A stretch of 64,000 nt of DNA from an uncultured Acidobacteriota bacterium. GTDB taxonomy: Bacteria; Acidobacteriota; Thermoanaerobaculia; Multivoradales; SZUA-115. Position 1 is the stretch's first letter. Every line of letters begins with the position of its first letter. The notes beneath the pieces were generated by a model. That model was not told the DNA's origin. It made no database searches and saw nothing but the letters and a program-made list of their open reading frames with translations. The position numbers were made by a program, and so were the translations under genes. The stretch spans positions 192,001 through 256,000 of the forward strand of contig CAWDVR010000005.1 of NCBI GenBank assembly GCA_963805975.1, in the 5' to 3' direction. Shown in pieces: positions 20,501 through 32,500 of this stretch.

Positions 20501-23500
20501 TCGGCAGGCAGAGGCCCACGGGAACGTCCGGCCCCACGCCGCGCGCCGCGAGCTCATCCGCAAGACTGCTGGCGCGGCCGGCGAGCCCCGCGTAGCTGAG
20601 CCAGGTCTCGTCGCCGTCCTCGTTCCAGGCGGCGAGCGCGGTGGCATCCGGCCGCACCGCGACCTGCTCCTCGAAGCGGTGGAGCCACACGCTCTCGCCG
20701 GCCTGGGCACCGGCCACGTCGAGGCCGCTGTCGTTCCACTCCGCCAGGAGCTGGTGGCGCTCCGGGGTATCGAGGAGCACCAGCGCGGAGAGCGGCGCTT
20801 GCTCGTCCACCACCGCGTGCGCGAGGAGGCCCCCGAGCTGCCGCACCAGCCGCGCCATGGTCGAACGGTCGAAGAGGTCCGTCGCGTAGCTCAGGACGCC
20901 GGTGAGCGCGCCGCCGGCCTGGGTGACGGCGAGCGTCAGATCGAACTTCTCGCCGCCGCTCTCGGTGGCGAGCGGCTGGACCTCGAGGCCGGGCAGCGCC
21001 ACCGCTTCCGCCGGCGTGTTCTGCACGATGAGCATGGCCTGGAAGAGCGGCGCGCGCGCCAGGTCGCGCTCGGGCTCGAGCTCTCCCACCAGCTTCTCGA
21101 AGGGCACGTCGGCGTGGGCGTAGGCCGCGAGGCTCGCCTGCCGCGCCTGCGCGAGGAGCGCGGACCAGGACGGATCGCCGCCGAGTCGCGCCCGCAGCAC
21201 CAGCGTGTTGAGGAAGCAGCCGATCAGGCCCTCGACCTCGCTCCGGTTGCGGCCGGCGATGGGCGTGCCCACGGCCAGGTCGCGCTGCCCGCTCCAGCGC
21301 GCGAGGAGCGCCTGGAAGCCGGCGAGCAGCACCATGAAGACCGTGGCTCCGTGCCGCCGGCCCATGGCCTCGACGGCCGCCGAGAGGTCCGCCGGCAGGG
21401 CGAAATGGAGCTCTCCGCCGCGGTAGCTCGGGTGCGGCGGGCGCGGCCGGTCGGTGGCGAGCTCCAAGACCGGCGGCGGCCCGGCGAGCTGCCGGCGCCA
21501 GTAGCCGAGCTGCGCCTCCAGCCGCTCGCCGCCCAGCCAGGACCGCTGCCAGGCGGCGTAGTCGGCGTACTGCACGGCGAGCGGCGGCAAGGCGGCGCCG
21601 CCGTAGAAGGCCGCCAGCTCGCGGATCAGGATACCGGTGGACCAGCCGTCGCCCGCGATGTGGTGCTGGTTGGCAAGGAGGGCGTGATCGTCCTCGCCCA
21701 GGGTCAGGAGCGCCACGCGCAGCACGGGGCCGCGCGCGAGATCGAAGGGCCGCCGGGCGTCGCTCGCCGCGAGCCGGCGTGCCGCGGCCTCGGCCGCCGG
21801 TGCGCCGAGGAGAGAGAGATCGACGACCGGGAGCGGCACGCGTGCCGGCGGCGCGATGACCTGCACCGGCTGGCCGTCGCGCACCGCGAAGGTGGTGCGC
21901 AGGGCCTCGTGGCGCTCCGCCACGGCCGACAGCGCGGCGGCGAGCGCGCGGCGGTCGAGCGCGCCCGTGAGGCGGACGGCGGTGGGGATGTTGTAGGCCG
22001 TGCCGCCGGGCTCGAGCTGGTCCAGGAACCACAGCCGCTCCTGCGCGAAGGAGAGCGGGGCCAACGAGAGCGGCACCTCGCCGTGGTGCGCTCGCGGCAC
22101 CAGCGGCGGCAGGGCGGTGGCGTCAGTCCCCGGGCCGTCCCCCGAGCTGCCACGGAGCGCTTCCTCGACGCGGACCCCGAGGCCGGCCACCGTGGGCGCC
22201 TCGAACACCACGCGCACCGGCAGCTCGATGCCCAGGTCGGTGCGCAGGCGCGAGACGAGGCGGGTCGCGAGGAGCGAGTGGCCGCCGCGCTCGAAGAAGC
22301 CGGTCTGCCGGCCGACCGCGCCACCGCCCAGCAGCTCGGCGTAGACGCCGGCGAGCAGCTCTTCGATGGGCGTCCGGGGCGCCTGCGCTTCGCCGGCCTC
22401 GGCGTGGGCCTGGACCTCGATCTTTGCGAGGGCCTTGCGGTCGGCCTTGCCGCTGGGTGAGAGGGGCAGGGCGTCGAGCACGGCGAAGTAGGCCGGCACC
22501 ATGTGCTCGGGCAGGCGCTCGCGGAGCGCGGAGCGCAGGGCTTCGGGGGAGAGGGTTAGGGTGAGGGGCTCCCTCTCTGGCACCAGGAAGGCGACGAGCG
22601 CCGGGCCGCCGGGAAGATCGGTGCGGAGCAGCACGGCGGCCTCGCGCACGCCGGGCAGCTCGGCGAGGGCGGACTCGATCTCTCCCAGCTCGATGCGGAA
22701 GCCGCGGAGCTTGATCTGGAAGTCCAGCCGGCCGAGGAACTCGACCTCGCCGTCGGGCCGCAGGCGGGTGCGGTCGCCGGTGCGGTAGAGACGGGCGCCG
22801 AGGGCACCACTGGCGCCGTCCGGCACGAAGCGCTCGGCGGTGAGAGCGGGCCGGTCCCAGTAGCCGCGGGCGAGGCCGACACCGGCGAGGAAGAGCTCTC
22901 CCGGCACGCCGATGGGCACGGGGCGCAGGCCCGGATCGAGCACGAAGACGGCGAGGTTGGCGATGGGGCGGCCGATGGGGACGGTGGCCAAGTCCTCGCC
23001 CGGCGGGCAGGGACGGAAGGTGACATCGACCGCCGCCTCGGTGGGGCCGTAGAGGTTGTGGAGCGCGACCGCCCTGGATCTCGGTGCGCGACGGGGCTCT
23101 CGGGCTGCGGTGCTCGAGCTCCCTTCGGGCGGCCTGCGCTCCTCGCCCGAGAGCCCCGTCACGCGCGACAGCCGTTCGTGGAACCGCCGCACCAGGTCAC
23201 GGGGCAAAGCCTCGCCGCTGGCCATCACCTGGCGGAGGGCGAGATCACCCGCCTGCTCCTCCAAACCCGGATCGTCCAGGAACGCCTGGAGCATCGAGGG
23301 CACGAAGTGGGTGGTGGTGATGCGCTCCTCGGCCATCACCTGGCGGAGATAGGCCGGGTCTTTGTGGCCCTCGGGCCGCGCCATCACCAGCGTGGCACCG
23401 GTGGCGAGCGGCCAGAACAGCTCCCACACCGAGACGTCGAAGCTCGCCGGGGTCTTCTGGAGGACGCGGTCGCCGGGGCGGAGGTCGTACGCGTACTGCA

Positions 23501-29500: not shown

Positions 29501-32500
29501 CGCCGTCCGGCACGAAGCGCTCGGCGGTGAGAGCGGGCCGGTCCCAGTAGCCGCGGGCGAGGCCGACACCGGCGAGGAAGAGCTCTCCCGGCACGCCGAT
29601 GGGCACGGGGCGCAGGCCCGGATCGAGGACGAAGACGGCGAGGTTGGCGATCGGCCGGCCGATGGGGACGATAGCCGAGATCCTCGCCCGGCGGGCAGGG
29701 ACGGAAGGTGACATCGACGGCCGCCTCGGTGGGGCCGTAGAGGTTGTGGAGCGCGACGAAGCGCCCTCGCCCAGATCCTTCGCTGCGCTCAGGATGACAA
29801 GCGGTAGGGTCTACCATTCCCGAGCCGTGGTGGGCGGCACCGTGCCCCAACTTGTCATCCTGAGCCAAGCCCTCGTCATCCTGAGCGCAGCGAAGGATCT
29901 GGCTGGGCGGGCCTTCGACGCGCGAGAGCCGTTCGTGGAACCGCCGCACCAGGTCTCTCGGCAACGCCTCGCCGCTGGCCATCACCTGGCGCAGCGCGAG
30001 GTCACCCGCCTGCTCCTCCAGGCCCGGATCGTCCAGGAACGCCTGGAGCATCGAGGGCACGAAGTGGGTGGTGGTGATGCGCTCCTCGGCCATCACCTGG
30101 CGCAGGTAGGCCGGGTCTTTGTGGCCTTCGGGTCGCGCCATGACCAGCGTGGCACCGGTGGCGAGCGGCCAGAACAGCTCCCACACCGAGACGTCGAAGC
30201 TCGCCGGGGTCTTCTGGAGGACGCGATCGCCGGGGCGCAGGTCGTACTCGTGCTGCATCCACCGCAGCCGGTTGGCGATGCCGCGGTGGGTGTTCATCAC
30301 CCCCTTGGGCCGGCCGGTCGAGCCCGAGGTGTAGATGACGTAGGCCAGGTGGCTCGGCGTGACGGCGGAGGAGTTCTCTCTCGCCGTCTCCACATCGCTC
30401 TCGATCGAGACCGGAACTGGCCGTACGGACTGGGGCGCCCAGTCGAGCGTCTGCCCTTCGGCGGTCAGAACCAGAAGCTCGCGAGCACTGCCCGCCCCGT
30501 CCCCGCTCGCCAAATCCTCGGCCATGCCCGCCAGTCGCTCGGGCGGGTAGGAGGGGTCGAAGGGCACGTAGGCGGCGCCTGCCTGGAGGATGGCGAGGAG
30601 GCCGACCGACAGCTCGAGCGAGCGCTCGATGGCGATGCCCACGGCCACGTCCGGCCCGGCGCCGAGGTCGGTCAAGCGGGAGGCGAGGGCCTGGGCGCGG
30701 CGGTCCAGCTCGGCGTAGGAGAGGGCCGCGCCCTCGGCCACCACGGCGACCGCGTCCGGGGTGCGGGCGATCTGCTCGGCGAGCATGCCGTGCAGCAGCT
30801 CGCTGCCGTCGTAGCTCTCCGCCGTGCCGTTCCACTCGGCCACCGCCTGCTGGCGCTCGGCCGGCGAGAGCAGCGAGACCGCGTCGTAGCGGCCGTGCGG
30901 GTCCGCGGCGAGCGCGGCGAGCGCGCGCTGGTAGTAGCCGGCCGCGGCGGCCATCAGCGAGGCGTCGAGGTCCGAGGCCCGGTAGTTGAGGGAGAAGGAC
31001 ATGCCGCCGCCCGCCGGATCGATCTCGAAGTGCGCGGTGAGCGGGAAGTTGGTCTCTTCGTAGCCGCGGTAGCCCAGCACCTCGGCCTGCGCTCCGCCGC
31101 CGGTCGCCAGGCGCGCCTCCACCTCCTGGTAGACGTGGTAGTGGATGAAGTTGAAGACCGACTCGAAGAGCTCCCGCCCGCCCTGCCGGCGCTGCAGCTC
31201 GACCAACGGGTAGCGGCGGAAGGGGAGGAGCGCCCGCTCGCGTTCGAAGGTCTCGAGCACCAGCGCTTCCCAGGTGCCGCCGCCGAGCTTCAGGCGCAGC
31301 GGCAGCGTGTTGAGGAACAGGCCCAGGGTGCGCTCACCCTCGGCGCGCTCCGGCCGGCCGTGGACGATGACGCCCGCCACCACGTCCGCCTGGCCGGAGA
31401 GGAGCGCCAGCACCCGCAGGTGGACGGCGAGGAACACGCTCTTGACCGGCACGGCGAGCGCGCGCGCCAGGGCCTCGACGCCGCGGCTGAGCGCGGGGTC
31501 GAGGGCCACGTCGAGCGACACGGAGTGCCCATCTGGGCGCCCGTCGCGCTCCGTGCTCGTCCCGCGCGCCTGCCGGGGCAGCTCGGCGAGGGTGCTGCCT
31601 TCGAGCTCGCGGTCCCAGAAGGCGTGCGCCTCGGGGGAGGCCAGCACCTCGCGCTCCAGCGCCACGAACTCGCGGAAGGGCACCGGCGGCGGGGGCGCCG
31701 TCACAGCCTGGGCGGCGTGCCCGCCGGCCAACTGGGTGGCGTAGCTCTCGAACAGCTCGGAGAGGAGCGAGGCGGCGCTCCAGCCGTCGAGCACCGAGTG
31801 GTGGAAGGAGAGGCTGAATTGAAAGCTCTCCTGGGGGAAGCTCTCCCCCGCCTCGTCGCTCCCCAGGCGGTGTACCAGGAAGCGGGCGAGGGGCGCCCGC
31901 GCCCAGTCGAAGCCTTGGAGGCTCTCCACCCGCAGGTGGGCGGCGATCAGCTCGGCGTGCAGCGCCGGGTCCACTGCCGAGAGGTCGACGAAGGCGAGCG
32001 GCGCCCGCACCCGCCGGTGGACGAGCTGCAAGGGCTCGCTCGCACCGTCGAGGTCGAACGAGGTGCGGAGCAGCGGGTGGCGGTCCACCACCGCCTGCAC
32101 CGAACGGGCGAGAGCGCCCATGCGGAGCGGCGCCCGCAGGCCGAAGCTGTGCTGGTCGTGGTAGATGGCGGTGCCGGCGGCGAGCTCGCTGTGGAAGAGC
32201 ATGCCGGCCTGGAGGCGGACCAGCGGGTAGGCGTCCTCGAGGCCGGCGGGCAGCCGTGCGCGGTCCGCGGCGGACACCAGCTCGAAGGGCGCGGTCTCCG
32301 GCCGCCGTGCGCCGTCCCCACTGCCGCTCTGGAGCACGCGGGCGAGCTGGCGCACCGTCGGATGGTCGAAGATCTGTTGCAGGCCCAGCTTGTAGCCGCG
32401 CTCCTCGGCGAGCGACAGCACCTGCACGATGCGGATCGAGTCGCCACCCAGGGTGAAGAAGGGGTCGTCGATGCCGACTCGCTCGATGCCCAGCACCCGC

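Follow-up and report, generated by a model that had tools for sequence, protein, structure and literature searches.

Two hairpin inserts in an NRPS of an Acidobacteriota bacterium

The window analysed here is a 64,000-nucleotide stretch (positions 192,001 to 256,000) of contig CAWDVR010000005.1 (C5) from an uncultured Acidobacteriota bacterium, assembly GCA_963805975.1 (G000). Its best matches and relatives indicate the Thermoanaerobaculia within the Acidobacteriota. The window encodes a large nonribosomal peptide synthetase (NRPS) on the minus strand. The adenylation (A) domains of two modules, M10 and M12, are serine (Ser)-type, and each carries an insert between the codons for FHERLSR and VALH, in the helix-to-strand loop between A4 and A5 (the a4-a5 loop). 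Both inserts are in frame and free of stop codons, and both are copies of hairpin repeat families, B in M10 and C in M12, that are dispersed through the genome and resemble repetitive extragenic palindromes (REPs). The features of the two domains are listed below, in window positions; a position preceded by a contig label refers to that contig.

22431..24014, minus strand: M12 A domain, Ser-type (best matches Ser-activating; model pLDDT 87)
23070..23162, minus strand: M12 in-frame insert, 93 nt / 31 aa, a family C hairpin with a 16-nt tail (alignment; low-confidence coil in the model)
23070..23085, minus strand: unpaired tail of the M12 insert, ending GGGCG; a possible remnant of a family B right arm, weak and not significant
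23090..23105, no strand: family C arm, perfect 16-bp inverted repeat with 23145-23160; arm sequence found in this copy only
23104..23146, minus strand: conserved family C core, about 43 nt, common to about 20 dispersed copies (repeat search)
23145..23160, no strand: family C arm, partner of 23090-23105 (inverted repeat)
29030..30771, minus strand: M10 A domain, Ser-type; identity to M12 of 93-96%, confined to the A domain
29758..29919, minus strand: M10 in-frame insert, 162 nt / 54 aa, composed of two family B units whose GTC tags point inward, part of a third unit and a tail rich in G
29774..29798, minus strand: family B unit (YGTC tag, 8-bp stem with tandem GA, 5-nt loop)
29875..29899, plus strand: family B unit, inverted partner

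The preliminary description of this DNA had reported the two inserts, their lengths, the family B palindrome of M10 and the perfect 16-bp inverted repeat of M12, and all of these were borne out; alignment of the two A domains placed the breakpoints of both inserts at one codon. The arms of the M10 palindrome (29771-29811 and 29862-29902) pair over 41 nt at 88%, and the M12 inverted repeat extends from 16 perfect bp to 20 bp at 95%. Folded as DNA, the M10 insert had a z score of -7.7 and the M12 insert one of -3.3, and none of 200 shuffles was as stable in either case. Each insert is unique in G000. The two were not alignable to each other, and the idea that one is a degenerate form of the other was not supported.

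The A domains themselves had been called almost identical in DNA. They are highly alike, at 92.9% over 960 nt upstream of the site and 96.4% over 531 nt downstream, and the tract common to M10 and M12 is limited to the A domain. The best single-domain sequence and fold matches of the M12 domain were the Ser-activating Txo2, Txo1, EntF and FscH, which suggests Ser specificity for these A domains.

Long a4-a5 segments in three Ser-type domains

Without its insert, the segment from SGEAL to LH is 23 aa in both M10 and M12, the usual length. We collected 250 A5 motifs from 120 homologous proteins; 241 segments were 17-29 aa long, 8 were unmeasurable and 1 was mis-anchored. All 191 Ser-type segments among them fell within 17-29 aa, with no long insert, and the Ser-type domains of related genomes had segments of 22-25 aa. 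G000 itself has 50 A5 motifs, 45 of them measurable: 40 segments were 17-29 aa, 2 were mis-anchored and 3 were long (54, 77 and 78 aa). The three long segments belong to the three Ser-type domains of the NRPS cluster on C5. Among the 25 A5 motifs of this cluster (3 unmeasurable, 1 mis-anchored), a long a4-a5 insert was present in 3 of 3 Ser-type domains and in none of the other domains measured. A Ser-type A domain in another family of the order (G027:C84) has a 16-aa proline-rich insert after the A7 motif, repeat-derived in appearance.

The third Ser-type domain of the cluster lies about 2.8 kb past the end of the window. Its insert (G000:C5:258815-258979) adds 55 aa at the same codon and is a family C hairpin with 27-bp perfect arms, read in a different frame from the copy in M12.

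The preliminary description had also noted TCGCGC on both sides of each insert and proposed it as a target or microhomology site. The hexamer does flank both inserts, but a role as target was not upheld: it consists of host codons (Ser-Arg and Val-Ala-Leu), the third copy is without it, and among 42 family B and 17 family C loci it stood on both sides of one each, M10 and M12 themselves (0 of the other 41 B or 16 C loci). No constant target-site duplication or target motif was found at these inserts; a GTC repeat flanks M10 only, and none is present at the third copy. A miniature inverted-repeat transposable element or an insertion sequence was not supported as the source, there being no such constant duplication or motif.

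These inserts could stem from independent hits, with B entering M10 and C separately entering M12 and the third domain, if few codons are tolerant and Ser domains are the most tolerant. Such a history would suit the lack of any alignment between the M10 and M12 inserts, and the C cores of M12 and the third copy, which are read in different frames and whose arms have only 6 inner bases in common. The loop before A3 likewise holds families A and B in different modules, and a fourth Ser domain of G000 (C1:1053220) has a loop 6 aa longer with no hairpin. Against it, three hits would be needed on one codon in three Ser domains, with none in the other A domains measured and with no target motif or constant duplication to guide them. 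The third copy and M10 also have in common a 14-base gapped motif that occurs 3 times in the genome, although this motif was picked after the fact. With the age of the B insertion (below) added, we regard independent hits as possible but rather unlikely.

Repeat families B and C

Family B has 58-76 units in G000, depending on the pattern used. They are dispersed and mostly extragenic, and 22 inverted pairs are present, 13 with the tag inside and 9 with the tag outside. The unit has an 8-bp stem that starts with AT and holds two G/A mismatches, a 5-nt loop and, in 71 of 73 units, C or T before GTC. In tag, stem, loop and dispersal it agrees with the definition of CGTC-tagged REPs, and its tail is CTGG or CTG, not CCA-like. 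We filed it by the text definition as CGTC-type, since the tail and pair orientation in which it departs are described as tendencies, and did not assign it to any of CGTC-1 to -4.

A 104-aa GIY-YIG gene lies between family B hairpins in two genomes of the same family as G000 (G002:C38:60190-60871 and G006:C200:7613-8094; PF01541, E 1e-14 to 1e-16). At the best 80 of 573 GIY-YIG homologue loci, B-like repeats were present at 27, against 1 of 80 in the reversed control, and Ssn-related motifs (SRMs), identified by pattern, at 13. The published degenerate SRM pattern fitted 0 of 58 family B units and 29 of 38 units of family D. From its sequence and its position, the 104-aa protein is a candidate Ssn nuclease whose target would lie outside the published SRM pattern. 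Family B was also found at 23 viral loci.

Family C gave 21 BLAST matches and 17-19 copies by pattern. The 16-mer of the M12 arm is unique in the genome, and the loop that it encloses is the dispersed repeat: the core is invariant, and the arms vary from copy to copy yet remain paired. In an alignment of 16 copies, 90.9% of cells were paired and 10 of 13 pairs changed on both sides; no shuffle of 500 reached this pairing score, and slid controls gave 35-51%. Intergenic copies have arms that are equally perfect. No GTAG or CGTC foot was seen in the 16-copy alignment, and four loci scanned against Rfam gave no match at the gathering score (4 weak matches lay far below threshold). Of 201 genomes of the order, 3 held the exact pattern, and all 3 belong to the family of G000. 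A pattern for C and its sister family F (15 copies in G000) occurred in 1 of 251 genomes of the class, in a set that did not include G001 and G006. The general genome and metagenome contig collections, from which near relatives may be absent, gave 0 matches. A loose regular expression for family C was dropped (676 matches, mostly by chance), and a candidate C-related motif proved to be thiolation-domain GGHSLL codons. Families B and C co-cluster only weakly in G000 (under the strict pattern, a B unit lay within 250 nt for 1 of 17 C units); in G001, B adjoins C at 2 of 5 C loci, and the single close C/F pair there encloses a B unit and no gene. Family C is apparently an undescribed repeat family.

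The genome has at least seven repeat families (A, B, C, D and F, and the GTAG-tagged G and H), and no Y1 transposase was found in it. Family D is NTS-like. Tandem arrays with 69-nt and 99-nt units are present at G000:C4:576.5-578 kb and C2:6.5-7.9 kb.

History of the insertion site

The module order M9-M10-M11-M12 is kept in the orthologous cluster of G001. Over 329 columns from the start of the A domain, the M10 and M12 paralogues were 93.6% identical in G000 and 94.2% in G001, and 76.9-79.0% identical across the two species. Likeness within each species therefore exceeds that between species, which indicates concerted evolution and does not support the recent duplication that the preliminary description had suggested. 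The G001 contigs end at both Ser A-domain cores. M10 and M12 differ more often within 130 nt of the inserts (18 of 260 nt) than farther away (20 of 660, p 0.01), a pattern that would arise if conversion tracts tended to end close to DNA that does not match.

Two soil contigs, from related organisms and not from G000, cover the site. In the contig from X1 (157 nt, depth 14.6, 13 differences in 113) the codons for H-E-R-L-S are joined directly to a 16-nt family B tail, which is followed by the A5 strand. Compared by eye, this stretch agrees with the right end of the M10 insert at 15 of 16 letters and at all 16 with the tail of the B copy at C5:134996, and it amounts to about four extra codons with no hairpin. 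In the contig from X3 (286 nt, depth 5, 20 differences in 179; placed at 29896-30178) the host flank runs into the left end of the M10 insert, with 20 of 25 letters alike. A search of sequencing runs for the G000 organism returned no run with half of the query words, and no RNA run was listed.

Flank divergence from G000 is about 11% in the relatives from X1 and X3, and 7% between the flanks of M10 and M12, so B was at the site before these flanks last coalesced. Between the two histories offered by the preliminary description, replacement of one hairpin by another is therefore better supported than independent hits. We lean towards the view that an old B insertion opened the loop in an ancestral Ser domain, that C later replaced B in M12 and in the third Ser domain, and that the added peptide was tolerated. 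B may have spread, or been cut, as single-stranded DNA by an Ssn-type nuclease. A loop filled with unconstrained hairpin-forming DNA would then accept deletions and further repeats, including the C hairpins and the deletion of B in one lineage; gene conversion would keep the flanks alike while tending to stop short of the non-matching inserts, and Ser adenylation would continue to work. The difference in hairpins between M10 and M12 is likely to reflect turnover of repeats that the protein tolerates, an event of a known type, rather than selection for a stem-loop.

Several observations weigh against this history. The B remnants supposed in M12 and the third copy do not stand out statistically: the comparison of M10 with M12 gave p 0.08, and among 19 family C windows ranked for likeness to the M10 insert the third copy came 5th and M12 6th, with their arms 29th of 171 pairs. 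A tree of 16 Ser domains did not resolve M12 with the third copy. X1 and X3 are represented by one short contig each, with only 25-30 loose letters, and neither contig can be placed in M10 or in M12 specifically. The two flanks might also have been converted by separate tracts, neither of which crossed the site. In G000, which is 96% complete, no Ssn-like GIY-YIG gene was found and Y1 transposase (PF01797) gave no match; no mobiliser of family C was found in it either, with no C/F pair within 4 kb. A frameshift also follows the M10 insert (below).

Repeat load of the NRPS cluster

The seven repeat families have 217 loci in G000, 17 of them in the 110-kb cluster, and all 17 lie within NRPS coding sequence. 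Thirteen of the 17 passed an automated in-frame test, two are open through the insert and then frameshifted, and two were read by hand; outside the cluster 8 of 200 loci passed, one of these being a chance 13-mer. Inserts are found mainly in three loops: families A and B ahead of A3, B and C at a4-a5, and A in the C-terminal subdomain. Repeat turnover was also seen at the two loops other than a4-a5 and in the orthologous G001 cluster. Many of the cluster inserts are likely to be copies of one another. Further loci in the window are as follows.

29153..29254, minus strand: family A palindrome, in frame, in a loop of the M10 C-terminal subdomain
22548..22567, minus strand: what is left in M12 of this family A insert, a sign of turnover by deletion at a second loop
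9356-9499, 19182-19244, 41755-41907, 47538-47550, 55750-55866 and 59431-59469: family A loci in NRPS coding sequence
20209-20271, 54090-54152 and 57498-57560: family B loci in NRPS coding sequence

The orthologous G001 cluster has the same kinds of in-frame inserts and an open frame of 7246 aa, so the repeats were loaded long ago and do not indicate decay.

The concentration of repeats in coding sequence (17 of 17 loci, against about 7 of 200 elsewhere), with the orthologue of G001 loaded alike, is what might be seen if the hairpins were kept by selection, whether for a stem-loop in the mRNA or for a nuclease cut from which recombination between NRPS modules begins. Just to the right of the insert, the third copy is nearest to M12 (87%, against 66-81% for 14 others), but to the left it is at background (71%). 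In Neisseria, SsnA makes its cuts next to such repeats and is a modulator of DNA integration (PMC11893778). Selection for a stem-loop, which the preliminary description had raised, nevertheless seems improbable. One relative (a single contig, from X1) keeps four codons of the B tail with the hairpin gone, so the stem-loop can be lost, and the 191 Ser-type homologous segments are short throughout. Intergenic C copies have arms just as perfect, the differences between M10 and M12 are greatest next to the inserts, no cognate nuclease was found in G000, and many cluster copies were probably copied from one another.

A 130-aa DUF559 (restriction endonuclease-like) gene at G000:C3:920185-920505 has family A palindromes on both flanks, and its product is a candidate cognate nuclease of family A, the most abundant repeat. 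It is a long shot that the repeats in tolerant A-domain loops serve as nicking sites for Ssn-type and DUF559 nucleases, which would act on single-stranded DNA there and so start gene conversion between modules. If this were true, selfish repeats would drive subdomain swapping and peptide diversification, and a third nuclease would be expected to act on family C.

In-frame repeats also occur in non-NRPS genes (G000:C2:88033, C2:48087, C2:1054021, C3:288398, C3:926650 and C5:162552), one of them being family C.

Position of the inserts in the protein and the frameshift after M10

An AlphaFold model of the M12 A domain, built on a 25-sequence alignment, had a mean pLDDT of 87 and an intact fold, with the insert as a low-confidence coil between helix 271-285 and strand 316-321. 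The loop with the inserts is predicted to be surface-exposed and disordered. In the beta/alpha geometry of such domains, the loop enters the A5 strand on the face away from the pocket, and the far end of the strand lines the pocket. The site adjoins the A5 strand, as the preliminary description had it, and lies where that strand begins; by the model and this general geometry, it would be at the end away from the substrate pocket. Ser adenylation is likely to tolerate 31-55 extra residues at a4-a5, judging from the model.

About 80 nt after the M10 insert the NRPS frame is shifted.

29668..29678 (about 29670-29677), minus strand: one extra base relative to M12

This base, if real, would split the protein after the A5 motif of M10. 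The cluster has 13 frame switches in 110 kb, against 0.2-0.5 per 10 kb genome-wide, and since frame switches are common in its near-identical repeats, an assembly error is the likely source of the extra base. The same figures could be taken to mean that one of the two copies is itself chimeric or mis-polished. We consider this very improbable: each insert is unique in the genome with copy-specific flank differences on both sides, the module order is conserved in G001, and ends of the M10 type occur at this site in independent soil contigs.

Most of the frame switches in the cluster fall in G000:C5:186794-198521. That region and 256446-262016 hold segments of 5.4 kb and 2.2 kb that are duplicated within the cluster at 93% identity. 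A frameshift also follows the family B pair at 54090-54152.

Comparison with known systems

In-frame REPs in genes are already a known phenomenon. CGTC-tagged REPs are short dispersed palindromes, mostly intergenic, of which a minority lie in frame in genes and add 20-80 aa; they have an 8-9 bp stem starting A-T, a 4-5 nt loop and a CCA-like tail, and tag-outside pairs predominate (Di Nocera, De Gregorio and Rocco 2013, PMC3733652, in the sections available, which also cite the Rickettsia palindromic elements as comparable intragenic palindromes). Like these elements, the M10 and M12 inserts are in frame in a conserved protein whose homologues lack the insert, and family B resembles intragenic CGTC REPs in its YGTC tag, AT-starting 8-bp stem and 5-nt loop. 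It differs in that tag-inside pairs, rare in that account, are common here (13 against 9). The host is also an Acidobacteriota bacterium and the inserts lie in an NRPS cluster; paralogues hold members of two families at a single codon, and intermediates are present in relatives. Family C is, like REPs and REPINs with their RAYT transposases, a dispersed paired hairpin, but it has no foot tag, neither GTAG nor CGTC.

In a literature search that did not take in subscription papers, we found no report of family C or of REP families replacing one another in NRPS modules, and none of the a4-a5 site, the series of states at one codon, the link between family B and a nuclease, or cluster-wide loading. 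Such a series at one coding site (full B pair, four-codon remnant, C hairpin and empty site) is rare and makes repeat turnover visible.

The layout of hairpin, small GIY-YIG gene and hairpin in G002 and G006 is that of the Ssn nuclease with its NTS/SRM repeats (Chenal et al. 2025, PMC11893778). Family B differs in lying outside the SRM pattern and in having no nuclease gene found in G000. In-frame copies in NRPS genes are not described for Ssn repeats in the available sections of that paper. A CGTC-type repeat outside the SRM pattern that is linked to Ssn-like nucleases would offer a new single-strand specificity that can be tested.

Interrupted A domains (PMC8341866, PMC11355689, as far as available) likewise hold foreign sequence inside an A domain whose fold is kept. 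Their inserts are catalytic and typically placed at a8-a9 or a2-a3, whereas those described here lie at a4-a5 and are non-catalytic; at 31-55 aa, predicted to be disordered and read in different frames in two copies, they were rejected as interruptions in the catalytic sense. MtaG/MelG reportedly carry a monooxygenase insertion at a4-a5, of which the sections available gave no mention. The a4-a5 loop is a natural site that likely tolerates 31-55 extra residues, and it would be useful for NRPS engineering if activity were confirmed. The homogenisation of paralogous A domains within a cluster is shared with the concerted evolution and recombination reported for NRPS A domains (PMC9205934, in the sections available), but the present case is distinct in that a repeat insert sets the homogenised domains apart and divergence rises next to it.

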